A DNA stretch of 64,000 nt, taken from positions 1,617 through 65,616 of the forward strand of contig CBDVAM010000002.1 in assembly GCA_965371965.1 (NCBI GenBank), given 5' to 3'. The stretch comes from an uncultured Phycisphaerales bacterium. Lineage in GTDB: Bacteria; Planctomycetota; Phycisphaerae; Phycisphaerales; UBA1924. Numbering within the stretch: the stretch's first letter is position 1; each line of letters opens with the position of its first letter. A program made the position numbers and the translations under genes. The notes beneath the pieces are model-generated. The model was not told where the DNA came from, did no database searches, and was given only the letters and a program-made list of their open reading frames with translations. Below are positions 1,805 through 18,003 of this stretch, one piece after another.

Positions 1805-2708
1805 GGGCAGGTACCACAAACCCATGCCACTGACCCTTCCAAGGACCAGTGCTCCTCATCGCAACACCTACCCACCCAAGAAGCACTGACCATCCGAATG
1901 GTCAGCGGCACATCAATCCCCAACTCCCAAACGCAACTTTTCTCGCACGACACCCATCCCTCGTCCGCCACATCACGACCCTACACACCCTCCCCGTCGA
2001 CGCCGAGCACATCTGCGAAAACAATACCCCCATGATCGCAATCCAAACCCAACTCGAACCCGACCCGACCGAAACTCCAATCGACGCCCCTCCTCAAAAC
2101 CCCAGACCCGAATCCCCAGACCCCTCCCCCGACCCTCGACCCCCTACCCCCGACCCGTCGCCGTTCGGCGACCTCAACGAAGACGCCCTCCTCCGCGACT
2201 TCCTCACCGCCGACATCGACCTCCTCGACATCTGCGACAACCACGATCTGAAAATCACCCAGCTCGACGCCTGGCTCAACCAACCACGGATCCAACAAGC
2301 CCTCGAAACCCTCGAACGCATCAACGAAACACGCGAGCGCGCCATCCTCGCCCAGGCAAGACCCATCGCCGCCTACCGACTCCAGCAGGCCGCCGCCAGA
2401 GACCCTGCGCAAATCGACCCCAAACTCCGCACCACCCACGAATCCGCGCGCAAGGCCGCCGCCCAACTCCTCCGCACCCCCGACGTGCGCAGCAACGTCC
2501 CCACAAGAGGCCCTGGCGCAAGCCTGGGCTCCAATCCACCGAAACACACCATCAACCAACACCCAACCGATACGCCATCGTGTGCCCGAAAGCACAGCAC
2601 AGCACCACCGCGCCCATCGCCCGACACTATCGACGACCCTCAAGCCTCCTCGTTCGACCGCCCGTCACCCGCCCCACGGATCCATTCAACCAACTACACT
2701 CCATTCCA

Positions 2709-3176
2709 ATGCCCGACAAGCCCCCACAACCCTGGACATCCAACGCACCCTTCTCCACCCAGCGCATCCGCGCCGCAGCCGTCTACTGCTCCGACGGACG
2801 CTTCGGCGAGCAGTTCGATGACCTCTGCCACAACGCACTCGACCTCCCCCGCTACGACCGCCTCGCCGTCCCCGGCGGCGCGGCCTGCCTCGCCGGACAC
2901 TTCTCCGCCCACAGCGAAGAGCACTCCGTCGAACAACAACTCCGCTTCCTCATCGAGGTCCACGAGATCGAGCGGGTCGTGCTCATCGCCCACCAGGGCT
3001 GCGCGTACTACACCCACCGCCTCAACATCCACACGATCGACCTGCACGCCCGCCAGCTCGACGACCTCGCCCGCGCCACCACACATGTCCGGGGGCTCAA
3101 CGCCAACCTGCAAGTCGATGCCTTCTTCGCGGCCCTCGACGACGACCAAGTCACCTTCAACCAGATCGACGCCTAA
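2709..3176 (+). CDS. small protein (155 aa) with beta-carbonic-anhydrase-like CxDxR ... HxxC motifs
   Basis: ORF 2580..3176 with an internal ATG at 2709 (MPDKPPQPW...). Contains VYCSDGRF and LIAHQGCAYY, resembling the beta-CA zinc-ligand signature (C-x-D-x-R, H-x-x-C). It is shorter than typical beta-CAs, so the function is tentative. Confidence 0.45.
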   Translation: MPDKPPQPWTSNAPFSTQRIRAAAVYCSDGRFGEQFDDLCHNALDLPRYDRLAVPGGAACLAGHFSAHSEEHSVEQQLRFLIEVHEIERVVLIAHQGCAYYTHRLNIHTIDLHARQLDDLARATTHVRGLNANLQVDAFFAALDDDQVTFNQIDA

Positions 3177-3312
3177 CTCTCCACGCTCGAACGTCTCCCT
3201 ACGAGCCCGAAGCGCAAGCGAGCCTGCGACACTCCAAGCACTCGCCCGTCCCGCCATCTCCCCGCCACAAGACCTCTCCACTCCGTGCCACTCTGTGACA
3301 CTCCGTGGTAGT

Positions 3313-3660
3313 TCATATTTTTCGCTCTTCGTTCTTCGCTTTTCGCTCTCCCCCCCAGGGATCCTCCCGCCTCGGCCCGTACCACATGTCCAACCTCTCG
3401 CGTTTCTTCAACCGCCGCGTCCCGCCGACGAAGAGCTTGCCGATCTCGACGGACATCTCCCAGAACGAGTACGTCCGCAGCTTCCGCCCCGAGGTCACGA
3501 CCGCCGATGGAACCGACACATACCGCCCCTGCTTGCGCAGCCGGCGTGCCAGCAGGAGCTCCTCGTCGTGTGCTGGGATGACAAAGCTGACGAGCACATC
3601 GTCATGCCAAGCCCGGATCACCCAGAGGCTCATAGCGCAAGGCGACACCCCCGCCTTCAA
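3313..3660 (-). pseudogene. C-terminal fragment of a family-2 glycosyltransferase (TIGR04283-like); N-terminal catalytic part absent
   Basis: ...PAHDEELLLARRLRKQGRYVSVPSAVVTSGRKLRTYSFWEMS...LDMWY resembles the C-terminal 'EDxELsxRLrrxG...vTSxRr...' region of TIGR04283-type GT2 enzymes. No upstream GT-A domain exists; the ORF opens only at 3660. Confidence 0.45.
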
Positions 3661-3707
3661 GAAGGCGGGGGTGGGCCTGGTCAGAAAACACGACAGTCAA
3701 AAAGTGA

Positions 3708-4964
3708 TCAGCAGCCGATCACGAAAAGATCCAGGTACGCAAAGAAGTCGTTGGAATCGATGGTTCCGTTGCCATCAATGTCCGCCCTCGGATCATCGGC
3801 GGCAAAGAGATCCAGAAAGTCGAAGAAGTCGTCGGCATCGGCATCGCCGTCGCCGTCGATGTCGGCACCACAGTTCTTGGGCGGCGCGATCGCGTTGAAC
3901 AGCACGCTAGTCGTATTGCTGTCGCCATTCGGCACGGCCAGGTCGGCCATGGTGTCGCCGTTGAGGTCCGCGACGGCTATCTGCTGGGGAGCTGTGCCCG
4001 TGACGAACTGGACCGGCGCACCCAGCGTGCCGCCGAGGTTCTCCAGGCCGCTGACAAAGCTCAGATCCTCGTCGCCGACGACGACGTCGAGGTCGCCATC
4101 ACCGTCGAGGTCGACCGCGGCGATGTCGCCCGGGTTCTGCCCGCCGGTCGTGAAGAATGCCGGGCCGGTGAAGGTGCCCGCACCGGTGTTACTGAAGAGG
4201 TTGAGGAAATCGCCGGAGGCGAGTACGTCAACGTCGCCGTCGCCGTCCATGTCGCCGGTCTCGATCGAGCTCGGGCGCTGATTCGGTGTCGAGATGGACT
4301 GGGACATGCTGAACACGCCGGCGTTATTGGTGAAGAACGCCACGTCGCGGAGCTGGCGACGCCCTACGGCGAAGTCCAGATCGCCATCGCCGTCAAAGTC
4401 GCCGAAGTCTGCCCCGCCGGCCTCGTCACCGACCGAGACGTTGGTGGCGGTGAACACGCCGGCGTTGTTGACCAAGACCGAGACGCTGGCGCCGCTGCGA
4501 TTGGCGGTGAGCAGATCCATATCGCCATCGCCATCAACATCGCCCATTTTCATGGCGCGCGGCTCGCTACCGGTCGCGGCATCGCCCGCCGCACCGAACA
4601 CGCCGGCGGTGTTGGTATATACCCGCACGGTGTTCATGTTCTTGAGAACGACGGCGAAGTCTGTGTCGCCGTCGCCATCGAAGTCATGGGCCTGGAGCGT
4701 GTCGGCGCCGCTGTTCGCGCCGGTGAAGATCTCTGCGGTCTGGGTGAATACACCGGCGTTGTTGGTGAAGATGAGGACGCGGTCCGGTTGGGATACCGAG
4801 ACAGCGAGATCCATGTCACCGTCGCCATCCCAATCGCCCGCGGCGACACCGCCTGGGCGCTGCGCGGTCGCGAGGTTGGTTGCCGGGTCGAACGCCGGCA
4901 CTTCTGCGACCACCGAGGCCGCCAAGCCTGCCACGAGGATCGCACTGATTGTCTTTCTGGTCAT
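3708..4964 (-). CDS. secreted 7x FG-GAP (integrin-alpha-like propeller) protein with C-terminal Gly-Cys-terminated double-dockerin module (member A)
   Basis: ATG at 4964 (MTRKTISAILVAGLAASVVAEV signal peptide, AGGAG upstream). Seven repeats of type GDWDGDGDMDLAV / HDFDGDGDTDFAV. C-terminus NCGADIDGDGDADADDFFDFLDLFAADDPRADIDGNGTIDSNDFFAYLDLFVIGC*. Confidence 0.85.
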   Translation of the reverse strand: MTRKTISAILVAGLAASVVAEVPAFDPATNLATAQRPGGVAAGDWDGDGDMDLAVSVSQPDRVLIFTNNAGVFTQTAEIFTGANSGADTLQAHDFDGDGDTDFAVVLKNMNTVRVYTNTAGVFGAAGDAATGSEPRAMKMGDVDGDGDMDLLTANRSGASVSVLVNNAGVFTATNVSVGDEAGGADFGDFDGDGDLDFAVGRRQLRDVAFFTNNAGVFSMSQSISTPNQRPSSIETGDMDGDGDVDVLASGDFLNLFSNTGAGTFTGPAFFTTGGQNPGDIAAVDLDGDGDLDVVVGDEDLSFVSGLENLGGTLGAPVQFVTGTAPQQIAVADLNGDTMADLAVPNGDSNTTSVLFNAIAPPKNCGADIDGDGDADADDFFDFLDLFAADDPRADIDGNGTIDSNDFFAYLDLFVIGC

Positions 4965-5031
4965 GACTTCATCTCCTGTGTTTGAAGAGCTCGTTGATAC
5001 GCCGCACAGCGCGGCACCGATGAGTTGCATG

Positions 5032-5046
5032 GCAACTCGCGTGCCA
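5032..5046 (-). promoter_or_regulatory. sigma54 (RpoN) -24/-12 promoter, perfect core TGGCAC-N5-TTGC
   Basis: The minus strand reads TTTGGCACGCGAGTTGCC (reverse complement of 5031-5048). It is intergenic, ~68 nt upstream of the ATG at 4964 of member A. Confidence 0.7.
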
Positions 5047-5141
5047 AAGTCGCGTCACAGGGTGCGCCGGCGTCGCTCGCTGTCACGCAGCGCCGGGTGT
5101 CAAGTGACGATCGCCCCTGGCTTGCACTGGCCATGGCGATT

Positions 5142-5155
5142 GGCCAATAGTGTGG
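5142..5155. promoter_or_regulatory. candidate enhancer/UAS motif GGCCAATAGTGTGG (copy 1)
   Basis: About 100 bp upstream of the sigma54 element at 5032-5046. Near-identical motifs occur at 8830-8841 and, inverted, at 11530-11542. Overlaps the palindrome TTGGCCAA. Confidence 0.35.
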
Positions 5156-5239
5156 AAGCAAAGAGAAGACCGGAGCCCCATGGGCACCCGGCCTCCGGGT
5201 TTGAGTTTGCGCTGTCCGTTGCGACGGATCTACAACAAC

Positions 5240-6592
5240 TCAGCATCCGGTGACGAAGAGGTCGAGATACGCAAAGAAGTCGTCGGCGTCGATGTCGCCA
5301 TCGCCGTCGATATCTGCGGCGGGGTCGTCGGCGGCGAACAGATCGAGATAGGTGAAGAAGTCGTCGGCGTCGGCATCGCCGTCACCGTCGAGATCGGCAG
5401 CGCAGCCCAGAGCCGGATCGTCGTACCCGACGAGGTGGATGTCTCCACGCCCGGCGCCGAACGACCACGCCGTCCCGCCGACGACGATCTTGTCGGTGCC
5501 GACGGCCACGGACCATGCCCGGTCGTCGGATACACCCCCGTCAGTCTCGCTCCAGAGCTCGACGCCGTTGGCGTCTGTGCGGACGATGTACATGTCCGCG
5601 CCGCCCGCGCCGAACGAGCCGGTCATGCCTACGAAGATGAACCCGCCGTCGGGCATTACACGCACGCATTGGCCCTTGTCGTCGGCGCGCCCGTCTCCGA
5701 AGATCCGCGTCCAGATGGGCTCTCCCAGGTCATCGGTGCGAACGAGGGCCATATCGGAATCGCCCGACTGGTTCGCGAAACTCCCGGCGAGGACAAAGCC
5801 CCCGTCGGCGAGTTCGCGGATCGAACTCAGGGTGCTGGAGCCCCCGCCGTTGTTGTGCGTCTGGTCCCAGATCGCAACGCCGAGCTCATCTGTGCGGATC
5901 ACCCACCAATCCCAGATTGGGCCTTGCACGAACCCGCCGATGATGTACCCGCCGGTGGAGACCTCTTCAATCGCGAGCGCAACGTCCGAGCCTGCGTTGG
6001 GGCCATCGTCGTACTCGTAGGTTTGCGCCCATTGCTGGATGCCGTTTGCGTCGGTCTTGACCACATACATGTCGTAGCTGCCGAAGTCGCCGTCGAGGAA
6101 CCACGTCTGCCCGGCGATGATGAAGCCGCCGTCGGATGTGAGAGCCAGGGCGTGCGCTCTGCTGTCTCTGCCCGCGTCGTAGGTCCTCTCCCACAGCAGG
6201 CCGCCGTTGGCGTCTGTCCGGATGAGGAAGGCTCTGAATGAGCCGTTTCTCCCGGTCCTTCCGGCGATCGCGTACCCGCCACCGGGCAGCTCTTTGACAT
6301 CGGCCCCGTAGTTATGGAAGTCCGATAGGTTATCGAATGTCCGCGACCACTCCTGGTCGCCGTTGGCGTCGGTCTTCACGAGGTACACGGCTATGCCCGA
6401 GTTGGGTGAGAACGATCTGCTGAACCCGACGGCGATGTACCCGCCATCGCGCGTCGCCTCGATCGCGAATGCCCCGTCCTCGCTTTCGCCGCCATAATCG
6501 CGTGTGAAGAGAACGTCTTGGGCGCGTGCCCCCGGGGTGCCGCCCGCGACCAGCACCGCGGCGAAGACCATGAGTTTTCTCTGAGCGTGCAT
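5240..6592 (-). CDS. secreted beta-propeller repeat protein with Gly-Cys double-dockerin module (member B)
   Basis: ATG at 6592 with AAGGAG 7 nt upstream. Signal peptide MHAQRKLMVFAAVLVAGGTPGARAQ. Six to seven ~50-aa repeats (TDANGxxxW...DGGYIxxG). C-terminus GCAADLDGDGDADADDFFTYLDLFAADDPAADIDGDGDIDADDFFAYLDLFVTGC*. Confidence 0.85.
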   Translation of the reverse strand: MHAQRKLMVFAAVLVAGGTPGARAQDVLFTRDYGGESEDGAFAIEATRDGGYIAVGFSRSFSPNSGIAVYLVKTDANGDQEWSRTFDNLSDFHNYGADVKELPGGGYAIAGRTGRNGSFRAFLIRTDANGGLLWERTYDAGRDSRAHALALTSDGGFIIAGQTWFLDGDFGSYDMYVVKTDANGIQQWAQTYEYDDGPNAGSDVALAIEEVSTGGYIIGGFVQGPIWDWWVIRTDELGVAIWDQTHNNGGGSSTLSSIRELADGGFVLAGSFANQSGDSDMALVRTDDLGEPIWTRIFGDGRADDKGQCVRVMPDGGFIFVGMTGSFGAGGADMYIVRTDANGVELWSETDGGVSDDRAWSVAVGTDKIVVGGTAWSFGAGRGDIHLVGYDDPALGCAADLDGDGDADADDFFTYLDLFAADDPAADIDGDGDIDADDFFAYLDLFVTGC

Positions 6593-6641
6593 GATGATGC
6601 TCCTTGAGACTGTCGGGTGTGGACCCGGTGCCGGTCGCTTC

Positions 6642-8774
6642 TTAGCAGCCGGCCGCGAAGAGATCGAGATACGCAAAGAAATCGTCGGCATCGATGTCGC
6701 CATCGCCATCGATGTCGGCGGCGGAGTCGCCAGCGGCGAAGAGATCAAGGTAGGCGAAGAAGTCTTCTGCGTCGGCGTCGCCATCGCCATCAAGGTCGGC
6801 CGCACAACCGATGCTCGGCATCAGGACCGTTGCCACGCCCTCGCTGATCTGGCTGAGCCAGAGACGGCCGTTCGCGTCGAACTCGACGTCGCCGAGCTGA
6901 TGGTGGGTCATGGGCGAGTCCTGCCTCGTGAAGATCGTCCACGACTCGTGGTCGTTGATGTCTCCGGAGACAAAGCAGAGCCCGTGGGGGAAGGGGGCCT
7001 GGTTCTCGAAGGTGTGCGCGCTGAGGGCCATGAGTCCGTCATCACGGAAGTCGATGCCGCTGATCGAGATGCCGGGCAGTGGCGAGTTGGTTGTGTCGTA
7101 GAGGGTGAACTGCTTGCCGTCGAATCGGACGAGGCCGTCCACCATGCCGAGCCAGAGGGTGTCGTCGGGACCGATCTTCATCGATCTGATGCCTCCGCGT
7201 TCGAAGATGATATTGAACTCAGTGGCGTCCCAGTCAGTCCAGGTTGTGCCATCGAATCGATGGAAGCTCAGTCGCGATGCGACCCACATGTTTCCTTGGC
7301 TATCAGACTCGATGCCGATGACGATCCCATGGGGAGGCAGGTCGCCAAGCGAGTGGTGCTCCCAGTCATTGCCGGCTTGGCCCCAGAGGCCGCTGTAGTC
7401 TCCGCCGATCCACATGCGCCCGTTGGGATCCTCGCCGATGGCCTGGAAGATCTCGACTCCCAGGCTGCTGTTGCGCCAGTCCCAGATCTGGAAGTCGTTG
7501 CCATCCCATGCGCCGACGCCGTTGGAGCCCATCCAGGGGATCCCATCGCTATCCTCAAAGATGCCGTGTGCCTGCTCGGCGAGGAAGGGCCAAGGATTCT
7601 GTTGCCCGTTGTGCATCCCCCAGTTTTGCCAGCTCTGGTGATCAAACCTGCTCATGCCGGCCTCGCCGGTGGCAACCCACATGTTGCCGGTGGGGCCGCT
7701 ATAGAAGTTGTCGATGAAATAGTCCGGGATGCCGGTGTTATATGAGTTGAATGCCTCGAGCCAGGCGCCGGAGGCGTTGAGATGGCGCGAGGCACCCGGG
7801 GTCGTGACCCAGATGTCGCCGTTGTCGGCGAAGGCGAGCGAGGTGATCCGGATGCCCTGATTGGTGAACTCTTGCCAGGTGCTCCCTCCGTCACGCGAGC
7901 GAGCCACCTGGCCGAACCAGTTGGCAAGATAGACCGCGCCGTCGGGCCCGACCTCAACGGCGGTCGTGGTCGTATTCGCGAGCCCGGTGACGTCGCCGAA
8001 ATAGGCCTCATACTGCCCTGTCGAGCGATCGAAACGGTAAAACCCGTTGCCGCCGCCAACGTCTGCTCTCATCCATATGTCGCCATTGTGATCTTCGTGG
8101 AGGTCGGTAAATCGCGATGGGCCGTCGTGGAAGATCCAGTCGGTGCCGTCAAACTCCGCCAAGCCGGCGAGCACCTTATTGCCGACGAAGACGTGCCCGT
8201 CGCCGGCAACGACGATTGAACTGAGCGCGTCCCAGATCTCGTCCCAGGGCATTTCAATACCCGTCTCGTACTTGGTCCAGTTCACACCGTCGAACTCGAA
8301 GATCGCGTGATTGGTCCGCTGTACGCCGGTGTTGTTGATCCAGACGTGCCCGTCGGCGTCCAGGTCGATGTCCTTGATCCTGTTGTGGCGCAGCGGCGAG
8401 TTGCTCGTGTTGTACACCGTCCACTTGTCGCCATCCTTGTGGACCAGTCCGCCCTCGGTTGCGATCCAGATCGAGCCGTCTTGTGCGAACTCGATGTCGT
8501 CTATGAACTCGCTGGGAATCGGCGTCTCCCAGTTGGCCCATGTTTCCCACGTTTGTGTGGTGAAGTCATAGATCCCGAGGCCGCCTTCGCGCCAGAAGGG
8601 CCAGCGTGCCGCAACCCAGAGGCGCCCATCTGGCCCGAAGGTGTTGAAGCGAGCTTCCTCGCCGGGTACGCCGGTGTTGCTGGGCTTGAGGATCTTCCAG
8701 TCCTGGGCCATCGCTCCGCAGGCCAGCGCCCCAAGGGACGCCGCTACCAATGTCATACTCCACTTCCGTTTCAT
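6642..8774 (-). CDS. secreted two-component-regulator-propeller (Reg_prop-like) repeat protein with Gly-Cys double-dockerin module (member C)
   Basis: ATG at 8774. Signal peptide MKRKWSMTLVAASLGALACGAMAQ. Repeats of type DGxxWIATxxGLxxxDGxxWTxY typical of Reg_prop propellers. C-terminus GCAADLDGDGDADAEDFFAYLDLFAAGDSAADIDGDGDIDADDFFAYLDLFAAGC*. Confidence 0.85.
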   Translation of the reverse strand: MKRKWSMTLVAASLGALACGAMAQDWKILKPSNTGVPGEEARFNTFGPDGRLWVAARWPFWREGGLGIYDFTTQTWETWANWETPIPSEFIDDIEFAQDGSIWIATEGGLVHKDGDKWTVYNTSNSPLRHNRIKDIDLDADGHVWINNTGVQRTNHAIFEFDGVNWTKYETGIEMPWDEIWDALSSIVVAGDGHVFVGNKVLAGLAEFDGTDWIFHDGPSRFTDLHEDHNGDIWMRADVGGGNGFYRFDRSTGQYEAYFGDVTGLANTTTTAVEVGPDGAVYLANWFGQVARSRDGGSTWQEFTNQGIRITSLAFADNGDIWVTTPGASRHLNASGAWLEAFNSYNTGIPDYFIDNFYSGPTGNMWVATGEAGMSRFDHQSWQNWGMHNGQQNPWPFLAEQAHGIFEDSDGIPWMGSNGVGAWDGNDFQIWDWRNSSLGVEIFQAIGEDPNGRMWIGGDYSGLWGQAGNDWEHHSLGDLPPHGIVIGIESDSQGNMWVASRLSFHRFDGTTWTDWDATEFNIIFERGGIRSMKIGPDDTLWLGMVDGLVRFDGKQFTLYDTTNSPLPGISISGIDFRDDGLMALSAHTFENQAPFPHGLCFVSGDINDHESWTIFTRQDSPMTHHQLGDVEFDANGRLWLSQISEGVATVLMPSIGCAADLDGDGDADAEDFFAYLDLFAAGDSAADIDGDGDIDADDFFAYLDLFAAGC

Positions 8775-8829
8775 CAGATGTACCTCGTTCGTTTCTCTCT
8801 GTGGCGAGCGGCTCTGCCGACGCCAAGAA

Positions 8830-8841
8830 CCAATAGTGTGG
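8830..8841. promoter_or_regulatory. CCAATAGTGTGG motif (copy 2)
   Basis: Exact 12-mer shared with 5144-5155. Intergenic, ~56 nt upstream of the ATG at 8774. Confidence 0.25.
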
Positions 8842-8903
8842 GCGGACGAGTCACCTCGCCTCTCACGCCCGGGACCGGCTGCCACGGCCCCTCCCCTAGA
8901 AAA

Positions 8904-10994: not shown

Positions 10995-11228
10995 GGTCTC
11001 CTCCTCTTTCGCAGGCACCAGCATCAACCGACCTGCGTGCGGGCACCCCACGAGCGACGCCACCCTGCGGCCCGTTCGCAGGGAGCGTGATGCGTTGGCC
11101 CCGCCCTGCGGTCTCGTCGGATGATGCCCGGCGAATCGCGCTGGGGGCGAGTTCAAGGGCGAGTCGGGCGATTTCTCATCTCGCTCGCCGGGACAGGTCG
11201 CCGGGGCTGGGTCCCGGAAGAGGAGAGA

Positions 11229-11357
11229 TTAACCTCTATCTGCAAAGAGGTCGAGGTATGCGAAGAAATCGTCGGCGTCGGTGTCGCCATCGGCAAGGGC
11301 CATTGGATCTGCGCCGACGATGACTGCTGCCAGAGCCCAACTCTTCTTACAGATCAT
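11229..11357 (-). CDS. 42-aa mini-ORF: signal-peptide-like N-terminus plus one dockerin repeat
   Basis: Hand-translated because it is below the ORF-track cutoff: MICKKSWALAAVIVGADPMALADGDTDADDFFAYLDLFADRG*. GGAGA lies 3-4 nt upstream of the ATG. It sits ~50 nt downstream of the sigma54 element at 11419-11433. It could be a functional peptide or a decayed family member. Confidence 0.4.
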   Translation of the reverse strand: MICKKSWALAAVIVGADPMALADGDTDADDFFAYLDLFADRG

Positions 11358-11418
11358 TTCCGGTCTCCATGTCGCTTGAGGACGACGGCTCGCCGAAACC
11401 TCCGACGCTTAGTCATGT

Positions 11419-11433
11419 GCAATGCGTGTGCCA
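11419..11433 (-). promoter_or_regulatory. sigma54 (RpoN) -24/-12 promoter, perfect core TGGCAC-N5-TTGC
   Basis: The minus strand reads TTTGGCACACGCATTGCA (reverse complement of 11418-11435). It is intergenic, upstream of the mini-ORF and of members D-C-B. Confidence 0.7.
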
Positions 11434-11529
11434 AACGCTCGCACATGGTCATTCCGCGATGATCCGGCCCCAAGCGGTGGTGTTCGTCTGCGAGATTCGG
11501 CCGTCTTGTTCAACCCGCGACGGGCAGCG

Positions 11530-11542
11530 CACAATATTGGCC
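11530..11542. promoter_or_regulatory. candidate enhancer/UAS motif (copy 3, inverted): CACAATATTGGCC = reverse complement GGCCAATATTGTG
   Basis: About 100 bp upstream of the sigma54 element at 11419-11433, the same spacing as copy 1 relative to 5032-5046. Contains the palindrome CAATATTG. Confidence 0.35.
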
Positions 11543-11629
11543 GGATCCGTTGTCCGGCAGCGACGGGTGCCGTGCTCTAGAACTCGCAATCGGCGTGTTC
11601 AACCGAAAGCAGGTCGCGCCGAACTCACG

Positions 11630-13189
11630 CTACGGGCATCCCATCACGAACATGTCGAGGTAGTAGAAGAAGTCGTTGGAGTCGATAATGAGATCGGGCA
11701 GGCCGTACTCCGAGGAGTCCGGGTCGGAAGACCCCGTCATGTCGGCCTCGGCCAGGCTGTCGCTCGAGAACTGGTCGAGGTAATAAAAGAAATCGTCGCC
11801 ATCGACGTCGCCGTCGGGAACGCCATAGCTTCCATCGCCAGAGTTCGATGACCCGGTGAGATCGCCCCGGCAGAAGAGACCCCGGTCTTCGAACTCAATC
11901 ACGGAGTTGCCATCAAGATCAAACAGGCTGAAGTTTGGTCCGCATCCGGGCACGACCACCCGCCCGTCCACCCGCCCGTCGGCGTCGCACGAGGTCCCGT
12001 CGAGCGCGGCGAGCGCGTCCTCATACTCTCTCACGTCCTGGCCATTGACTCGCTCGTCGGCGTTGAGATCACACGGTCGCACGTCAAAGCCGACATCGGT
12101 CCAGACATACAGCCCGTCTTCCTGCTTCGCATACGACGTGCCAAACAGCGCGGTGACGTCCCATTCGCTCGGCTCCAGTGCATCCTCGGCCTTCTTGTGT
12201 TCCCATCGCTCGGTGAGCACCTCGACCTCGCCATTGAGGCCCCCGGCATGGTCGATCAGATCCTGGACCGCCTCGATGACGCTGTGATGGCTGAACGGGC
12301 CGATCTCGTAGTCGATTGGCTCCTCGGGCTCGCCGGTGAGCTGCGCGGCACCAGCCATCGTCAGCGCCTCGACCAGCGTGATGGTCGTCGTATCGGTCGC
12401 GATGTCGTGGCTGAATCGAATGTTTACTTTCGGATCATACAGTCCGAAGTCGGTGCCGCCGAAGACCTCGCTGGCGTCCTGATATCCCGCGGCCCGCTGA
12501 AAGTACCGGCTGCGAACGACCCAGGTCTCGCCGGCCTCGAAGGTGTCGTCCTGGTCGCCGCCGGCCTTGGATTCGATCGTCACCCTATGGCAGCCGCAGA
12601 GCACCAGCGAGAAGTCCTCGCCCGATCGCTCGAAGAAGGGCTCGGTCCAGAAATCAAGATCGTGGTCCCCACATCCGCCCGGCCCGGCGCCGCTGCGCGC
12701 TGCACGCTCGCCGATGTCATCGCCGGGAAGCCCGCCGAATCGCCCGACATTCGCCAGGAATCGGAGTTCGGCGGCTCCCCCGAGCTCTCCGCCGGTGTCC
12801 TCGTCATGATCGACGTCGAACTCGAGGAACCCGAGCACGGGGCTCGGTCCAAAGATGAATGCCTCAAACGGACCGCCCCCGATGCCGACTCTGCCCGAAG
12901 GATTCACAAGGCCAACGAAGGAAACGTCCAACCGAAAGAGTTCAGCGTCGTCGTCGTCCTCCACCTCGCCGGTGTACGGATCGATAAGAGCGTCGTCCGC
13001 TCGCCAGCCGCTGAGGGTCACCCGCAGCACGTCCGGCAGATTGCTCAATGGATTCAGCGCCGCGACGCACCCGGTATCGGTCCGCCGGACTGTTGCGTCG
13101 CCGAACCCATCGACGAACCTCGCGACGTCGTCGCTCGCCGTTGCGCCGAGGCACGCCACCGCCGGAACACACCACGCCCATCGCCTCAT
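11630..13189 (-). CDS. secreted protein of unknown N-terminal fold with divergent Gly-Cys-Pro double-dockerin module (member E)
   Basis: The ATG at 13189 overlaps the TGA of the upstream response-regulator gene (ATGA). Signal peptide [19 protein letters not shown]-terminus ...FCRGDLTGSSNSGDGSYGVPDGDVDGDDFFYYLDQFSSDSLAEADMTGSSDPDSSEYGLPDLIIDSNDFFYYLDMFVMGCP*. Confidence 0.8.
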   Translation of the reverse strand: MRRWAWCVPAVACLGATASDDVARFVDGFGDATVRRTDTGCVAALNPLSNLPDVLRVTLSGWRADDALIDPYTGEVEDDDDAELFRLDVSFVGLVNPSGRVGIGGGPFEAFIFGPSPVLGFLEFDVDHDEDTGGELGGAAELRFLANVGRFGGLPGDDIGERAARSGAGPGGCGDHDLDFWTEPFFERSGEDFSLVLCGCHRVTIESKAGGDQDDTFEAGETWVVRSRYFQRAAGYQDASEVFGGTDFGLYDPKVNIRFSHDIATDTTTITLVEALTMAGAAQLTGEPEEPIDYEIGPFSHHSVIEAVQDLIDHAGGLNGEVEVLTERWEHKKAEDALEPSEWDVTALFGTSYAKQEDGLYVWTDVGFDVRPCDLNADERVNGQDVREYEDALAALDGTSCDADGRVDGRVVVPGCGPNFSLFDLDGNSVIEFEDRGLFCRGDLTGSSNSGDGSYGVPDGDVDGDDFFYYLDQFSSDSLAEADMTGSSDPDSSEYGLPDLIIDSNDFFYYLDMFVMGCP

Positions 13190-14670
13190 GACGTTCTCTC
13201 CGCGATCTCTCGAACCTTGTCCTCGAGCCCGTACCGCTCGATGCGATACCGGAAGCTGCTCCGCTGCATGCCGATGAGCTTGGAGGCCTTGGAGACGTTG
13301 CCGCGGGTGTGCTCGAGCGCCTGGAGCATGAGGGCCTGCTCGACCTGGTCCACCTTGTGCATGCCTCGCTCGAAGTCGAATCTCGGCGTGCCGCCGATGG
13401 GCGTCGCCTTGCCGTTGCTGTGCTCTATGCCCGCCCGCGGATGGGCGATCCCGATATCCGCGGCCTCGACCATCTTGGTCTCGCTCAGCATCGCGGCCCG
13501 CTGGATCGCGTTGGCCAGCTCTCTGACGTTGCCCGCCCAGCGGTGCGAGAGGATCGCCGACTCGCACGCCGGCGACAAATCCAGTCCATCGCGCCCGTAG
13601 CGAGCGCCCATGTCTTCCAGGAGTTCGCGTGCAATCAGCAAGGCATCCTGCTCCCGCTCGCGTAAGGGCGGGATCTCGATCGGGAATGCTGCGAGGCGGA
13701 AGAACAGGTCTCGCCGAAACTTGCCGTCCTCGGCGAGCGACTCAAGCTCCTGGTTTGACGCTGCGATGACCCGCGCCCGCACCTTGCGCTCGCGCGATCC
13801 GCCGACGCGCCGGAACGTGCCCTGCTCGACAACGACGAGCAGCTTGGCCTGGAGCTCCAGCGGCATCTCGCTGATCTCGTCAAGAAAGATTGTGCCGCCA
13901 TCGGCCATCTCGAACAGCCCGGTGCGCGAGGTCCGTGCGTCGGTGAAGGCGCCCTTCTCGTGCCCGAACAGCTCGCCCTCGACGAGGCTTGCCGGCAGCG
14001 CCGAGCAGTTGACGTGGACGAACGGCGGCTCGTCCTTGGTCGATGATGGCTGGCGTTCGACCGCCATGTCGTGGATGTATCGAGCGAGCACACCCTTGCC
14101 AACGCCGGTCTCGCCGAGCAGCAGGATTGTGGGCAGGGCCCCGCCGGGATCGGCGCCCAAGGGCATCTGCGCGAGGCGTGCGGACAGATCGAGGCACTTG
14201 AGCCAGGCCGCGCTCTGTCCCAGGACCTTCCGCCCCTGCTCGCGCGTCCGTTCCAGACGCTCGTACAGCTCGACCTTCTGGCTCAGTCGGCGATGCTCCA
14301 GCCACCTGGGAAGCTGGATCAGCAGCTCCTCGATGACGATGGGCTTCTGGAGATAGTCGTTGGCCCCATCGCGCATCGCCTCGACGGCGTGCTCGACGCT
14401 GCCGTAGGCCGTCATCACGATGATGACCCCGTCGAAGCCGTCGGCACGCAGCTCGCGCACGAACTCCAGCCCGTCTTCTTCGCCCAGATGTACGTCGGTG
14501 AGAACGAGGTCCAGGCTCTCCCGTTGCGACACGCCCCGCGCCGATCCGATCGACTCGCCCTCAAACACCTCGTGCCCGGCCTTTGTCAGCGATCGAGAAA
14601 CAGAGAATCTCAGGTTCTCTTCGTCCTCAATAATGAGAATCCTGGCCACCGTCTGCTCCTGACTGGCCAT
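13186..14670 (-). CDS. sigma54-dependent response regulator (NtrC family: REC + AAA+ EBP + Fis-type HTH)
   Basis: REC domain ([11 protein letters not shown]...DLVLTDVHL). Walker [18 protein letters not shown]-loop variant [28 protein letters not shown]-terminal [29 protein letters not shown]. Start taken at ATG 14670, overlapping the HK gene end by 44 nt; the start is uncertain. Confidence 0.9.
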
Positions 14671-16219
14671 TATTGGCCAGGCTTCCTGTCTGCACCTGAT
14701 CGGGCAAGACCAGGGAGAACCTCGCTCCCGTGCCATGAGCCTCGCCCGAACCACCGTCACTGGACGTACCGAGGCTCTCGACCTCGATTCGCCCGCCGTG
14801 TCCTCTCACCGCATGGAGTGCAGATGCAAGTCCGATGCCAGTCCCCTGCTTCTTCGTCGTGAACGACGGACGGAAGAGGTTCGGGAGCACTTCGTCGGAT
14901 ATTCCCGCCCCCTCGTCGGTTATCGACACTGTCCATGAGCCATCGGTCGCTGATGGGGCTATACGGACAACTCCGCCCTTTGGGGTGGCCTCGATGGCAT
15001 TGGCCAAAATAGCCGCCAAGGCGTGCCCCATGTGGTCCGGGTCGAACACGCGGGTGCTCATGGCCCGCGCGCCGCCAAGATCGCACTCGATCGCCACCCC
15101 CCTTGAGGCCGCCATCGGCTCGTGGGCCTGGATCACGCCCCGAAGCCACGATTCCACAGACACCTCACGACAATCCAAGTCGGCGGGGGAGGTCGCCCGC
15201 AGCAGGCGGTTGAGCCACTCCTCGAATCGGTCCACCGCATCGATGATCCGACGCTGGCTGTCCTTGAGATCCTGGTCCTCGACCTCCTGATGGGTCATCT
15301 CGGCGAGCCCGCGAATACCTGAAAGGGGATTGCGGATGTTGTGGACCAGGCGGCGCATCATCTGCCCGACGGCGACGAGGCGCTCTCGCTCGATGCGCTC
15401 TTCCTGGCTCCGCTCGACCAGCCCGGCCATCAGATTCACCTCGCGAGCCAGGGTCGAGAGCTCGTCCTTGCCCCGCGGATGCAGGCGATAGGAGAACTCG
15501 CCGGCACCGATGCGTTCGGCGGCGACGCGGAGCTCCTCGATCGGTCTCACGACCCAGCGACCGACCAGCGAGAGGCTGAGCAGCCCGACCAGCCCGGCGA
15601 GCACCGCGACCAGACCCAGCACCGCGATGAGGCGTACGCGGAGCTGGGACTCGAACGCCTCGGCAAAATTGGTGTCTTCGAGGACGCGCCCCTCGATCTT
15701 CTCGATCAACTCGTGGATCTCAAAGAGCGCAAGCCCGGCTCGGCGGCGAGCGACATCATCCTGGGACTCTCCCCATTTCATGGCGTCGGTGTGGGTATCC
15801 TCGATTCGCCTTCGCAGGTTCCGCTGACGCAGGATCACCGACTCGCCCTCTCTTGCACGAATGCGCCAGCGCTCTGCATGCTGGAGAACATCCAGTTGGG
15901 ACTTCATCTGGTTGGTGCGTGCACCAAACGCGTCGGCATCGAACTCCGGTGGCTCGCCAGAACGCTCGCCCCGCACGCCATGCCCCTCGGATTCTGGAGC
16001 TGTGTCGCCCCAGCTTGGCTCTCCGAGCAGCATCGTCGCCTGTGCCTCGGCACCGCGCTTTATTGTTCGCAGTGACGTCAGCACGCTCGCCATGTTCTGG
16101 GCGGGACGCGAGACCTCTCGTTCAATGATCGCGAACGACGACCACGCCGAGGCGAGGCTGACAAGCACCGCGAGGCCGAACATTGCGAGGAGGATCACGA
16201 ATCGCCGACGGATGGTCAT
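14627..16219 (-). CDS. sensor histidine kinase (2 TM, ~170-aa periplasmic region, HAMP, HisKA, HATPase)
   Basis: TM1 FVILLAMFGLAVLVSLASAW, TM2 LIAVLGLVAVLAGLVGLLSLSLVG, then a HAMP domain. H-box VHNIRNPLSGIRGLAEM. G-boxes DEGAGI / GTGIGL. Confidence 0.9.
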   Translation of the reverse strand: MTIRRRFVILLAMFGLAVLVSLASAWSSFAIIEREVSRPAQNMASVLTSLRTIKRGAEAQATMLLGEPSWGDTAPESEGHGVRGERSGEPPEFDADAFGARTNQMKSQLDVLQHAERWRIRAREGESVILRQRNLRRRIEDTHTDAMKWGESQDDVARRRAGLALFEIHELIEKIEGRVLEDTNFAEAFESQLRVRLIAVLGLVAVLAGLVGLLSLSLVGRWVVRPIEELRVAAERIGAGEFSYRLHPRGKDELSTLAREVNLMAGLVERSQEERIERERLVAVGQMMRRLVHNIRNPLSGIRGLAEMTHQEVEDQDLKDSQRRIIDAVDRFEEWLNRLLRATSPADLDCREVSVESWLRGVIQAHEPMAASRGVAIECDLGGARAMSTRVFDPDHMGHALAAILANAIEATPKGGVVRIAPSATDGSWTVSITDEGAGISDEVLPNLFRPSFTTKKQGTGIGLASALHAVRGHGGRIEVESLGTSSDGGSGEAHGTGARFSLVLPDQVQTGSLANNGQSGADGGQDSHY

Positions 16220-16246
16220 GGGCGAGGTCTGCCGAGCGGGGCGCGA

Positions 16247-17002
16247 TTATCGCAGGGGCGGCTGATAGCCCCAATCGAGCGAATCTTCGAGCGGGTGGCG
16301 GGTCGAGCGAACGCTCCCGTCGATAAACGTCAGGTTCATCGAGCCGGCGTGGCGCATGCCCGGGAACCAGTAGCGGTCTCGCGCGAACGGCCCCTGACTA
16401 TCCAACGATGGGCCGGAAAACACCGGTGACACTTCGTTCTCTTCCGCAACCGCGCCATCGACATCCCACATCAGCGGCACGAGGGAGTGTAACAGAATCT
16501 CGGAGGTCAGTTCGACGGGGCGAACCCCGACGCGTCCGTCGCGAACCTGCTCGCCCCAGTGCATCCGCACATTGAATCCGTAGGAGATGTTCTCTGGGGG
16601 CGCGACGCCGCCGCGCGAGCACGGCGCCTGACGTCGGAGCTCGACCGGGCCTTCGACTTCGGGGCAGCGCATCGGATCGCTGCCCTCGTAGGGGAGTTCC
16701 ACTAGTTGCTTCGCTCCCCAACTCCAGAACTCATCGATCCCGTATTGAGTTTCCTGGAACGTCTCAAGGCGAAAGCGGTCTCGTGAGAGTTGATCCTCGT
16801 CGTCGCCTCGGTTGCCGTGGAGTGCGTCGTCGGCGAAGATCGAGAAATCAAACGCGACGGCTCGCTGCGCCATCTGGCATCGGAACGAGCGTGCCGAGGT
16901 CCTCGCCCCACCGAGCGCAGGCAGCATGAGCGACATCAACACCGCGATGATGGCGATGGTGATGAGCAACTCGATCAGCGTGAATCCGCCGTGCCTTCTC
17001 AA
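16247..17002 (-). CDS. prepilin-type N-terminal cleavage/methylation protein with H-X9-DG motif (DUF1559-like)
   Basis: N-terminus GGFTLIELLITIAIIAVLMSLMLPAL. C-terminal HAGSMNLTFIDG (H-X9-DG). Only 27 nt upstream of the HK gene on the same strand. Confidence 0.85.
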   Translation of the reverse strand: MRRHGGFTLIELLITIAIIAVLMSLMLPALGGARTSARSFRCQMAQRAVAFDFSIFADDALHGNRGDDEDQLSRDRFRLETFQETQYGIDEFWSWGAKQLVELPYEGSDPMRCPEVEGPVELRRQAPCSRGGVAPPENISYGFNVRMHWGEQVRDGRVGVRPVELTSEILLHSLVPLMWDVDGAVAEENEVSPVFSGPSLDSQGPFARDRYWFPGMRHAGSMNLTFIDGSVRSTRHPLEDSLDWGYQPPLR

Positions 17003-17160
17003 GCGGTCTCCTGACGCAATGCCCCCCTGGACGATTCACAGAGGATACGGGGCATGGACCACGATCGCAACCGCATTATTCGTCCGAAAAGCCACAACTC
17101 GGTCATTATCTCGTTTGGCGGTAGTTCTGGCCAGTCCGAGAAAGTTCTGAGCGTCGTCGC

Positions 17161-18003
17161 TTACCCCCCTAGACGGGTGATCGAGATCGATCCGTTGCTG
17201 CTGCGGATCCGCGACTCGCCGCCCTCACCGGGCGTTCCGAGGGCGGACTGGGCGTGCAGCGTGCAGCTCCGGCGGCTCTTCTCGGTGATCTCGCCCGGCT
17301 CGAAACCAACGAGGCTGACAGACCCATTGGAGGTCCTTGCGGCCAGCTCGCCCGCGAACGCGCCGCCGACGGTCACATGGACCGAGCCGTTGGATGTGTC
17401 AATATGGACCGGCCCGCTCGAGGCGTCGGCGAGATCCACCCGAACGGCCCCGTTGCTGGTGTCCACGTTCACCGAGCCGATGATCTGGGCCAGCACGACC
17501 CGCCCGTTGCTGGTGTCGGCGACCACGTTGCCGTCGTGGTTTTCGACATGGATCCGTCCGTTGCTTGTTCTCATGGTTGCCTCGCCTGCGGCTCCAATGA
17601 GCGTCAGCGAGCCGTTGGAAGAGACGAGTGTCACGCCGTACGCGCTGGGCAGGCGGATGTCGAAGCTGCAGCCCTCGCTGCTCTTGCGCCCGCCCTCGGG
17701 CCACACGACCCGCAGGTACAGGGTCCCGTCGTCGAGGCGAGAGGCGACGACCTCGGTCAGGTCGAGGCGTTCCTGGGTCATCGCCTTGAGGTGGGCGTCG
17801 ATCTCGACGCTGTCGACCTCGACGACCTGCACGTCGATGGCACCGTTCTTGGTCTGGATATCCAGGGCGGTGCCGGGCTGGTGATCGACCATGAGCTGGC
17901 GGGTTTCCTTGAACCTCGCCTGCTGCCACGCGAAGTTGCACCCATTGAGTGCTGTGAGCGAGCAGACGAGCACGGCGTACACGCAACGGCGGGTCATGGA
18001 CAT
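17161..18003 (-). CDS. lipoprotein with DUF4097-like beta-strand repeats (putative adhesin fold)
   Basis: Lipobox LTALNGC. Repeated TSNGxV/I...V motifs (TSNGRIHVE, TSNGRVVLA, TSNGAVRVD, TSNGSVHVT, TSNGSVSLV, SSNGSISIT). Confidence 0.75.
   Translation of the reverse strand: MSMTRRCVYAVLVCSLTALNGCNFAWQQARFKETRQLMVDHQPGTALDIQTKNGAIDVQVVEVDSVEIDAHLKAMTQERLDLTEVVASRLDDGTLYLRVVWPEGGRKSSEGCSFDIRLPSAYGVTLVSSNGSLTLIGAAGEATMRTSNGRIHVENHDGNVVADTSNGRVVLAQIIGSVNVDTSNGAVRVDLADASSGPVHIDTSNGSVHVTVGGAFAGELAARTSNGSVSLVGFEPGEITEKSRRSCTLHAQSALGTPGEGGESRIRSSNGSISITRLGG

Follow-up and report, generated by a model that had tools for sequence, protein, structure and literature searches.

A probable sigma-54 promoter with upstream activator sites before a secreted FG-GAP GC-type dockerin gene of an uncultured Phycisphaerales bacterium

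A promoter served by sigma-54 gives no transcription as long as its closed complex has not been remodeled by an AAA+ activator. At enteric glnAp2, the sites for the activator NtrC (NRI) lie at about -140 and -108, and NtrC binds near its own operon too, an arrangement for autoregulation. The PEP-CTERM system pairs a kinase, PrsK, with an NtrC-like activator, PrsR, for secreted proteins that carry a C-terminal sorting domain (Haft et al. 2006, PMC1569441), and its pepA is RpoN-dependent (PMC9850573). There, an activator motif is followed by a ~63-nt spacer, the sigma-54 motif and ~71 nt to the start codon (PMC1569441; PMC9850573). For Planctomycetota, in-silico surveys predict sigma-54 together with many NtrC-type activators throughout the phylum, with promoters called from -24/-12 matrices, and the accessible part of this literature, which includes the Pirellula study, reports chaperone, flagellar, secretion and regulator genes (PMC12316311). 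That same part makes no mention of GC-type dockerin proteins, of the regulator module described here or of a TGGCCA operator (PMC12316311). No relevant paper came up in a literature search that combined dockerin, Phycisphaerae and sigma-54.

We analyzed a stretch of 64,000 nucleotides (the window) of a 65.8-kb contig, the organism being represented by metagenome assemblies alone. In the window, the minus-strand element 5046..5032 is very probably, as judged from sequence, a sigma-54 promoter that, with an upstream activator site, drives a secreted FG-GAP GC-dockerin gene. The comparison with described systems draws on the following features.

3708..4964, minus strand: member A (g1), 418 amino acids, whose signal peptide and FG-GAP repeats are joined by a GC-type dockerin domain at the C terminus
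5032..5046, minus strand: predicted sigma-54 promoter TGGCACGCGAGTTGC, a perfect match to TGGCAC-N5-TTGC with 0 mismatches
11630..13189, minus strand: g6, a conserved GC-dockerin protein of 519 amino acids, whose start overlaps the activator stop (ATGA)
13186..14649, minus strand: NtrC-family sigma-54 activator with Pfam REC, AAA+ and HTH_8 domains
14627..16219, minus strand: membrane histidine kinase with HAMP, HisKA and HATPase_c domains

As with NtrC at glnAp2, a regulator composed of REC, AAA+ and Fis-type HTH domains is accompanied by a histidine kinase and a -24/-12 sigma-54 promoter. The dyad-type sites of NtrC, which work in either orientation, lie ~100-140 nt upstream; the two candidate sites here are at predicted positions of ~-128 and ~-105. 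Unlike NtrC, the activator scores 327 bits against TIGR01818, whose equivalog cutoff is 558.6, and has GAFTDA as its sigma-54 contact loop. The candidate site is TGGCCA-N4-TGGCCAG rather than the TGCACC-N5-GGTGCA of NtrC, and its strongest copy lies within the 3' end of the kinase gene. Where NtrC serves nitrogen-assimilation genes, the predicted targets here encode GC-dockerin beta-propeller proteins that are secreted.

The likeness to PrsK/PrsR is one of organization. Both systems, the present one by prediction, dedicate a kinase and an NtrC-like activator to a protein family defined by a C-terminal sorting or anchoring domain, both have targets that are mostly single-gene operons behind large intergenic regions, the promoter-to-ATG distances are similar (~71 nt there, ~68 nt here), and accessory genes are linked to each (PrsT there, g6 and a pseudopilin-like gene here). 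By contrast, the activator reaches 291 bits against a TIGR02915 cutoff of 502.6 and the kinase 76 bits against a TIGR02916 cutoff of 300. The targets here bear NF041540 GC-type dockerin domains, the PEP-CTERM motif 1 ends in TTTACA whereas a TGGCCA dyad is found here, and the hosts are Proteobacteria there and Phycisphaerae here. The pair thus does not belong to PrsK/PrsR, and the resemblance is an analogy of logic only.

AtoS/AtoC and ZraS/ZraR share the domain order and give the top named NCBIfam matches (AtoC 338, AtoS 146 and ZraS 139 bits), but these scores are far under the equivalog cutoffs of 714, 646 and 479, respectively, and there are no ato or zra target genes. The names 'AtoC' and 'ZraR' on database homologs are generic family labels.

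The promoter and the gene behind it

Member A encodes a GC-type dockerin domain-anchored protein. It matches NCBIfam NF041540 at 45.6 bits (cutoff 29), ends in ...YLDLFVIGC* and matches Pfam FG-GAP_3 at 5e-42, in line with a previous reading of the sequence alone (the sequence-only reading), which had called it an FG-GAP dockerin gene. Its true ortholog, 63% identical, lies in locus L007. The gene is flanked as follows.

3704..3722, minus strand: terminator-like hairpin with a T-run, located at the g1 stop codon
4972..4977, minus strand: Shine-Dalgarno sequence AGGAGA, found by sequence reading, with a 7-nt spacer to ATG 4964..4962
5165..5196, minus strand: terminator-like hairpin with a U-rich tract behind it, directly ahead of the putative activator site

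The RNA fold of 5245..5156 contains a 14-pair hairpin (fold positions 50-81) followed by UCUUUGCUU, with an MFE of -36.3 kcal/mol and z = -2.1; this hairpin, 5196..5165, is predicted to end the upstream g3-g2 transcript. Because member A has a terminator-like hairpin of its own at 3704..3722, it would form a single-gene unit. A search of Rfam over 3000-18000 returned no RNA family.

From 5048 to 5031, the minus strand reads TTTGGCACGCGAGTTGCC. TGGCAC occupies 5046..5041 and TTGC 5035..5032, so that the GG of the -24 element (5045-5044) and the GC of the -12 element (5033-5032) are exactly 10 nt apart. The 3' end of the element lies 67-68 nt from ATG 4964, as the sequence-only reading had stated in placing TGGCAC-N5-TTGC ~68 nt upstream. 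The extended context, TTTGGCACG...TTGCC, agrees with YTGGCACG; the base after the -12 GC is C, not A or T, and is A in nearly all related promoters. Transcription is predicted to start at ~5020. We rejected ATG 5030, the mechanical limit of the open reading frame, as the start codon: it lies upstream of this predicted start and has no Shine-Dalgarno sequence. The promoter is intergenic, has the orientation of g1 and sits between the hairpin 5196..5165 and the start backed by the Shine-Dalgarno sequence.

The window contains two perfect matches to TGGCAC-N5-TTGC where 0.06 are expected, a number that none of 100 shuffles reached, and both are intergenic and point at GC-type dockerin genes. Among homologs of member A, the three closest, 46-63% identical to it, also have the perfect consensus before their ATG, at 88 nt in L007 (TGGCACGGGTATTGC), 82 nt in L026 and 91 nt in L028. 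The absence of mismatches bears out the earlier description of the promoter as perfect. More distant FG-GAP homologs in ECF-sigma contexts (L111-L114 and L029) show no sigma-54 promoter; TGGAACGAGACTTGC, before the L029 homolog and next to an ECF sigma/CHAT/S8 cluster, was not counted as one because it more likely contains an ECF-type GGAAC -35 element. As a negative control we used 80 loci of many phyla (568 kb), collected in a metagenome scan with a generic FG-GAP peptide pattern. These loci, at ~30% identity, were rejected as orthologs of member A and served solely as the control; they contain only 2 perfect matches.

We read 5046..5032 as a sigma-54 promoter on account of its perfect consensus, its intergenic position between hairpin and Shine-Dalgarno-backed start, the NtrC-type activator in the same cluster and its conservation before homologs. 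Computation thus supports a sigma-54 promoter plus upstream activator site for g1. Among the 20 open reading frames scanned in the window, none is rpoN or has Sigma54 domains.

The regulator module and its candidate operators

Kinase, activator and g6 lie in the same cluster, ~8 kb upstream of member A. The protein encoded at 13186..14649 is an NtrC-family activator with REC, AAA+ and Fis-type HTH domains (Sigma54_activat 4e-57, Response_reg 1.6e-22, HTH_8 1.5e-12; Pfam PF00072, PF00158, PF25601 and PF02954), and both Walker motifs are present, with Walker A GETGVGK at residue 186 and DEI at residue 264. Its sigma-54 contact loop reads GAFTDA instead of GAFTGA, as it does in 116 of the 120 best homologs; GAFTDA figures in a list of variants that should remain active, and D. 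vulgaris DVU2106 has it (PMC4641369). The activator probably starts at GTG 14649, with ATG 14670 as the alternative. The kinase at 14627..16219 is its likely partner on sequence grounds. For g6, modeling gives a confidently predicted fold that has no relative in the PDB.

The kinase/activator/g6 module recurs in more than 20 loci of Phycisphaerae MAGs, in most cases with a sigma-54 promoter and then an FG-GAP dockerin gene behind it, and g6 comes after the activator gene in every related locus in which the region upstream of g6 was read. The full four-gene module (pseudopilin-like gene, kinase, activator and g6) is found in L001, L002, L005, L028 and L116. A g6 scan, whose matches come without gene context, found homologs in 20 genome loci, and in at least 12 of these the kinase/activator junction immediately precedes g6. 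In the window and in L006, L007, L002, L010, L012, L013, L115 and L116, g6 is followed at 100-250 nt by a sigma-54 promoter; the gene behind the post-g6 promoter is an FG-GAP dockerin gene in L007, L010, L013, L116 and L028. Ancestrally, the module appears to have targeted the FG-GAP gene. In the genome of the window, three other dockerin genes and a remnant ORF lie between g6 and the FG-GAP gene, and promoter plus activator site are present twice. With 2 mismatches allowed, L008 is the only locus that has a sigma-54 consensus ahead of the module's first gene. We rejected TGGCATCGGACTTGC at 14826-14840 as a third promoter: it lies inside the kinase gene and is found in every kinase ortholog because it codes for the ATP-lid motif G-T-G-I-G-L.

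11419..11433, minus strand: first sigma-54 promoter of the window, TGGCACACGCATTGC, predicted from a perfect consensus
11527..11545, no strand assigned: putative activator site C, containing GGCCAATATTGTG (11542..11530), located by matrix and alignment
14662..14680, no strand assigned: near-perfect dyad CTGGCCAATAATGGCCAGT, lying within the kinase gene's 3' tail and ~20 nt before the activator start codon
17112..17134, no strand assigned: TGGCCA-type site CTGGCCAGAACTACCGCCAAACG (minus strand), in front of the pseudopilin-like gene with which the module begins

The promoter 11419..11433 precedes a dockerin-remnant ORF of 42 amino acids (11357..11229) and then g4, g3 and g2. Site C scores 12.3-12.8 bits and is centered ~-129 from the predicted start of this promoter, near 11407. 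When the orthologous regions of L007, L002 and L006 were aligned with it (four genomes), only motif and promoter were invariant, and site C is the invariant motif block.

Sites were scored with a matrix trained only on the dyads at kinase/activator junctions. The junction dyad 14662..14680 is the top match in the window (28-30 bits) and is kept in more than 12 loci, with wobble G and T fixed and the amino acids varying; we presume it to be the activator's high-affinity operator. The site at 17112..17134 scores 9.6 bits and shares 18 of 23 positions with a site in L006 that precedes the second sigma-54 promoter there by 143 nt. In 435 kb there are 35 other matches of at least 9 bits, 7 of which lie 40-103 nt upstream of sigma-54 promoters, against ~0.5 expected. 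A site with p < 0.05 is present in the interval -130..-30 of 11 of the 12 system-linked promoters. None of the 7 controls, five consensus matches plus the two from the unrelated FG-GAP loci (-1.7 and -5.0 bits), scores comparably. The hypothesis predates the retrieval of L115 and L116, both of which agree with the site prediction, and L026 and L028 each have three YGGCCR hexamers at -108..-54. Site positions differ among genomes, from -40 to -143, with no fixed architecture. The sites are likely those of the activator 13186-14649, a tie drawn from co-occurrence only.

The sites upstream of member A

5116..5134, no strand assigned: putative activator site A2, ATGGCCAGTGCAAGCCAGG on the minus strand, a matrix match centered at ~-105
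5139..5158, no strand assigned: putative activator site A1, the motif of the sequence-only reading, containing GGCCAATAGTGTGG at 5142-5155 (plus strand)
8830..8841, no strand assigned: third, partial motif copy CCACACTATTGG (minus strand), 56 nt before the g3 ATG

The 14-mer at 5142-5155 is present on the plus strand as reported. In A1 as a whole, an AT-rich spacer separates a palindromic TTGGCCAA core from TGTGGA, a weak second half; the site is centered ~-128 from the predicted start and scores 5.8 bits with the junction-trained matrix. The 14-mer can be described as a variant of the dyad TGGCCA-N4-TGGCCAG with one and a half half-sites (TGGCCA-ATAG-TGTGGA). Of the two palindromes said to overlap it, TTGGCCAA (5140-5147) does so, and GCCATGGC (5130-5137) lies only beside it. 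From the motif center to the T of TGGCAC we measured 102.5 nt here and 103 nt at the other promoter, close to the ~103 and ~102 nt given before. Of 13 positions, 12 agree between the motif and the copy in site C; the two are equally far from their promoters and, as previously noted, opposite in orientation (GGCCAATATTGTG being on the minus strand, 11542..11530). The palindromic TGGCCA core is a likely reason for which the motif could work in either orientation, and it would account for the motif facing opposite ways at the window's two promoters.

The 13-mer, when 2 mismatches are allowed, occurs 5 times in the window (1.08 expected). Its 11-mer core, CCAATAKTGTG, occurs 3 times when 1 mismatch is allowed (0.56 expected; 3 of 100 shuffles gave 3). 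A 12/13 match in either orientation between the two upstream regions of ~195 nt arose in 17 of 300 dinucleotide shuffles (~6%). The motif match alone is therefore only marginally significant, and the weight falls on the shared position, since a match at the same distance (±3 nt) arose in 0 of 300 dinucleotide shuffles, and on comparative data. In L007, CTGGCCAATATTGTC lies ~97 nt upstream of the perfect promoter of the member A ortholog. At the orthologous site, L007 retains GGCCAATATTGT, and L002 and L006 have variants of it, all between fully diverged flanks. The earlier proposal that the motif is an upstream activator site is thus favored by its presence at the L007 ortholog, by the invariant alignment block and by the TGGCCA family that accompanies the system's sigma-54 promoters.

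A2 adjoins A1, 24 nt away, and scores better. At 10.6-11.2 bits, it is the best TGGCCA-N4-TGGCCAG match of the g1 intergenic region and the 6th best of 128,000 window positions (empirical p = 0.0065 for a 100-nt window). The third copy, at 8830-8841, has lost the GGCC core and is not followed by a sigma-54 consensus; TGGCGT-N5-GAGC beside it (GG-N10-GC, 8825..8811) was rejected as a promoter for its 4 mismatches. Between activator site and g1 promoter, no IHF-like consensus was seen by eye. GTCAC/GTGAC repeats occupy 5060-5110 in the same interval and are absent at the other promoter.

The higher matrix score of 5116-5134 over 5140-5158 raises an alternative that we hold unlikely, namely that the promoter is real and the 14-mer is not a working site, the enhancer being the 5116-5134 site(s) and the 12/13 likeness a relic of duplication or rearrangement. 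The promoter region is indeed present twice in this genome, relatives have g6 directly before the FG-GAP gene, and shuffling alone yields the 12/13 match at the rate given above. However, the two copies are in opposite orientation with no further similarity around them, unlike a simple duplication, GGCCAATATTGT is retained between diverged flanks, and no shuffle reproduced the match at the same distance.

It is improbable, too, that the TGGCCA motif is bound by another sigma-54 activator, a repressor or a nucleoid-type protein, or that its AT-rich center is a sigma-70-type -10 element. The spacers AATAAT, AATATT and AATACT look like -10 hexamers, the dyad at the activator start could mark an internal promoter, and some sites lie upstream of the module, where most loci show no sigma-54 consensus. 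A -10 element, however, is orientation-dependent, which fails for the inverted copy at 5142-5155, and a sigma-70 scan of the g1 intergenic region found nothing. Against another protein speaks the company that the motif keeps: in over 14 genomes it occurs together with the module, both where the activator gene starts and before adjacent sigma-54 promoters, and the recognition-helix region of the activator is nearly invariant among orthologs.

That promoter consensus and motif are both chance matches without a regulatory role is very improbable: although a perfect consensus occurs inside coding sequence in L018 and L024, and the 1-mismatch match at 14826-14840 is conserved in the kinase gene for coding reasons alone, the window holds two intergenic, co-oriented matches where 0.06 are expected, three homologs keep the promoter 82-91 nt before their ATG, and perfect matches are rare in the unrelated FG-GAP loci.

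Proposed mechanism and meaning

The explanation that we consider probable as a whole combines a sigma-54 promoter of g1, the module's activator at A1 and A2, and DNA looping. RNA polymerase with sigma-54 would start near 5020 from 5046..5032 and leave a leader of 56 nt, as anatomy and conservation of the promoter indicate, and g1 would be transcribed alone, from the terminator of the upstream operon to its own. The activator acting here would most likely be the NtrC-type response regulator 13186-14649, which the adjacent membrane kinase may phosphorylate on an envelope or extracellular signal. Its Fis-type helix-turn-helix would recognize the TGGCCA-N4-TGGCCAG dyads at A1 (~-128) and A2 (~-105), where the protein would oligomerize and reach the promoter through a DNA loop, as NtrC does at glnAp2. 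Probably it would also bind the dyad 14680..14662 at the start of its own gene, an arrangement that predicts autoregulation.

The g1 switch is ordinary in kind; the conserved regulon to which it would belong has no description that we know of. Belief and doubt are evenly balanced on the wider proposal, in which an undescribed regulon, spread through the Phycisphaerae and linked to the sorting domain, would count this promoter among its outputs and comprise a four-gene module, TGGCCA-N4-TGGCCAG operators and an autoregulatory site at the junction. If true, the module would be a planctomycete counterpart of PEP-CTERM PrsK/PrsR, controlling GC-type dockerin-anchored beta-propeller surface proteins, and would be, with PEP-CTERM as the first, the second case in which a C-terminal sorting domain has a sigma-54 regulon dedicated to it. 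It would also provide a concrete predicted binding motif for an activator of an uncultured lineage. GC-type dockerin proteins are abundant in Phycisphaerae, and we know of no description of their function or regulation. Since the mechanism itself is textbook, the gain would be in the biology of the lineage and not in principle: the predicted operator and its two-component/sigma-54 circuit would offer a first handle on when GC-dockerin surface proteins are produced.

The cluster and its two predicted sigma-54 promoters

Every relevant gene of the GC-type dockerin cluster lies on the minus strand, and in transcription order the arrangement is:

17002..16247, minus: pseudopilin-like gene, first in transcription order
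16219..14627, minus: kinase with HAMP, HisKA and HATPase domains
14649 or 14670..13186, minus: NtrC-type activator with REC, AAA+ sigma-54-interaction and HTH_8 domains
13189..11630, minus: g6, its ATG overlapping the activator stop codon
Intergenic region after g6, 273 nt: motif copy C and the first sigma-54 promoter
Minus: 42-aa apparent dockerin-remnant ORF, then g4 (BNR/Ycf48-like), g3 (Reg_prop) and g2
Intergenic region before member A, 275 nt: terminator-like hairpin, a 14-nt motif and the second promoter
Minus: g1, member A (FG-GAP), with its own terminator

Member A is laid out as a single-gene sigma-54 unit. On the minus strand, 5048..5031 reads TTTGGCACGCGAGTTGCC, in which TGGCAC-N5-TTGC spans 5046..5032, upstream of the member A ATG at 4964, where the sequence-only reading had placed it; AGGAGA (4977..4972) precedes the ATG, and the encoded N-terminus, MTRKTISAILVAGLAASVVA, is signal-peptide-like. 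The sole other perfect consensus match in the window is the first promoter (11433..11419), giving two observed against 0.06 expected. The motif proposed as an upstream activator site, GGCCAATAGTGTGG, lies on the plus strand at 5142-5155, and copy C, GGCCAATATTGTG, on the minus strand at 11542..11530, so that both the opposite orientation and the equal motif-to-promoter distance (about 103 nt in each pair) are confirmed as described. The 11-mer core of the motif occurs three times in the window against 0.56 expected. Shuffling gave a 12/13 match between the two upstream sequences in 17 of 300 trials, and in none of 300 once equal distance was also required. Given these chance levels, the promoter match is strong by itself, whereas the motif match required outside evidence.

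The kinase and activator are intact and belong to member A's own cluster. Five proteins of this cluster (g1, g2, g3, g4 and g6) score above the NCBIfam cutoff for GC-type dockerin domain-anchored proteins. Walker A and Walker B motifs are present in the activator, as is a GAFTDA loop, a variant expected to remain active according to a Desulfovibrio listing (PMC4641369) and shared by 116 of the activator's 120 best homologs. Its start is probably GTG 14649 rather than ATG 14670 of the database gene call, because AGGAG lies 6 nt upstream and orthologs start MA(K/R)IL.IEDE. No rpoN was found among the 20 window ORFs that were domain-scanned.

The 519-aa GC-dockerin protein g6 is translationally coupled to the activator, which it follows in every related locus read upstream of g6. 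Its AlphaFold2 model is confident (pLDDT 91.9, pTM 0.90), no Pfam domain covers residues 1-430, and a Foldseek search of the PDB gave no structural neighbour (best E 0.48, TM up to 0.11); the model may represent a new fold. Beyond the 3' end of member A, window 1800-3450 has an extreme strand composition skew (GC skew -0.3 to -0.55; AT skew up to +0.5). A convergent plus-strand ORF from 1849, which as mechanically called overlaps the member A 3' end, encodes a Pro/Ser/Thr-rich low-complexity protein without a Pfam match.

Conservation of the promoter in related loci

Among related Phycisphaerae MAG loci, the complete four-gene module (pseudopilin-like gene, kinase, activator and g6) is found in L001, L002, L005, L028 and L116. 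Homologs of g6 occur in 20 genome loci, and in at least 12 of these the kinase/activator junction immediately precedes g6. At 100-250 nt 3' of g6, a sigma-54 promoter is present in the window, L006, L007, L002, L010, L012, L013, L115 and L116 (one mismatch each in L010 and L115), and an FG-GAP GC-dockerin gene follows the post-g6 promoter in L007, L010, L013, L116 and L028. Identity of 63% over 374 residues makes the L007 protein the ortholog of member A; in L007, TGGCACGGGTATTGC lies 88 nt upstream of the ATG. Homologs in L026 and L028 (46-48% identity) each have a perfect promoter, 82 nt before the ATG of a gene unlinked to the module in L026 and 91 nt before the ATG of a gene directly 3' of g6 in L028. 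By comparison, 568 kb of unrelated FG-GAP loci contain just two perfect consensus matches. Because the promoter precedes it in relatives, the FG-GAP gene appears to be the module's ancestral sigma-54 target. In this genome it is separated from g6 by g4-g3-g2 and the remnant ORF, and the promoter region is present twice.

The 42-aa ORF behind the first promoter (11229-11357, minus) combines a signal-like N-terminus with one dockerin repeat, and L002 carries a similar 39-aa dockerin-only ORF (13237-13356) between its promoter and a hairpin. These ORFs could be read as small functional peptides; to us they look more like FG-GAP target genes reduced by internal deletion.

No sigma-54 promoter precedes the more distant member A homologs in L029 and L111-L114, which mostly lie beside ECF-sigma/CHAT/S8 clusters; the neighbours conserved in L029, L111, L113 and L114 are an ECF-type sigma factor, a 200-aa protein, a CHAT/TPR protein and an S8 peptidase. 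This adjacency suggests a second, ECF-dependent route of regulation for the FG-GAP GC-dockerin family.

A TGGCCA site family and the junction dyad

Upon alignment of the post-g6 regions of the window, L007 (motif region CTGGCCAATATTGTC), L002 and L006, only GGCCA..A.T.T and TGGCAC...TTGC remain as invariant blocks. All system-linked promoters have a TGGCCA (YGGCCR) hexamer upstream, in many cases as repeats spaced 10 or about 20 nt apart. Its clearest instance is a dyad, nGGCCA-N4-TGGCCAG, in the last kinase codons about 20 nt before the activator start, found in more than 12 loci; the window copy, CTGGCCAATAATGGCCAGT (14680..14662, minus), is a near-perfect TGGCCA-N4-TGGCCAG. A third TGGCCA hexamer includes the activator start codon. 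In the kinase frame the dyad encodes x-A-x-x-G-Q, of which the first (L/T/S/M/V) and fourth (N/S/G/I/T) residues vary. Their third bases nonetheless remain G and T, against a genome background of about 80% G or C at third codon positions. Conservation of wobble bases under varying amino acids reflects constraint on the DNA, not the protein, and the dyad is probably an autoregulatory operator within coding sequence.

With a weight matrix trained on junction dyads alone, we scanned all fetched sequence. Four of the top eight window matches fall in cluster regulatory regions, namely at the junction, at copy C, at 5116-5134 between g2 and member A, and upstream of the module. Of 35 non-junction matches reaching at least 9 bits across 435 kb, 7 sit 40-103 nt ahead of a sigma-54 promoter, against an expectation of about 0.5. 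For the best score between -130 and -30, 11 of the 12 system-linked promoters gave an empirical p below 0.05, 8 of them below 0.01, whereas five control consensus matches gave p > 0.07 and two additional controls, from unrelated FG-GAP loci, scored below zero. L026, L028, L115 and L116 were obtained after the hypothesis was set, and all four fit.

The computation thus supports reading the region as a sigma-54 promoter with an activator site, and refines it: the best member A site is 5116-5134 (10.6 bits), and the motif first singled out (5.8 bits) is a weaker dyad variant, TGGCCA-ATAG-TGTGGA, with a good half-site, an AT-rich spacer and a weak second half. Judged from these matches, the member A enhancer is probably a pair of sites with centres near -105 and -128 relative to the predicted start.

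Further motif and consensus matches lie elsewhere. A third motif copy, CCACACTATTGG (8830-8841, 56 nt before the g3 ATG), shares 12 identical nt with 5144-5155; TTGGTT stands in place of its GGCC core, and the copy is not followed by a sigma-54 consensus. A site ahead of the pseudopilin-like gene, CTGGCCAGAACTACCGCCAAACG (17112-17134), matches L006 17617-17639 (OFTM8 MAG) at 18 of 23 positions. The L006 site lies 143 nt upstream of that locus's second sigma-54 promoter, ahead of a Kelch dockerin gene; in the window no sigma-54 consensus follows, and a sigma-70-like pair (TTGCGA-N17-TATCCT) lies downstream. We rejected TGGCATCGGACTTGC (14826-14840) as a promoter: this one-mismatch match is kinase coding sequence for the G-T-G-I-G-L ATP-lid motif and recurs at the equivalent position in every related locus as a false positive of promoter scans. 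In L002, a perfect consensus, TGGCACGGCCTTTGC (16743-16757), precedes an HSP70/DnaK gene by about 115 nt and lacks an upstream TGGCCA site, in agreement with PMC12316311, which reports chaperone genes enriched among predicted Planctomycetota sigma-54 promoters.

Proposed regulation and related systems

Promoter and site family are conserved. We propose that the activator at 13186-14649 binds TGGCCA-type sites, that the kinase would control it through phosphorylation, and that the junction dyad would serve autoregulation. NtrC/glnAp2 is of the same functional type, an enhancer-dependent promoter. Closest in logic is the PEP-CTERM box with PrsK/PrsR, where a dedicated kinase and NtrC-like activator serve mostly single-gene operons whose products share a C-terminal sorting domain, in the order activator motif, spacer, sigma-54 motif, about 71 nt and start codon (PMC1569441; PMC9850573). 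The PEP-CTERM motif is unlike the one found here, and we rejected membership in that system, since kinase and activator score far under the PrsK and PrsR cutoffs; scores for NtrC, AtoC and ZraR identities are also under cutoffs. We found no paper joining dockerin, Phycisphaerae and sigma-54. The mechanism is ordinary; what is new is the proposed regulon and its predicted operator.
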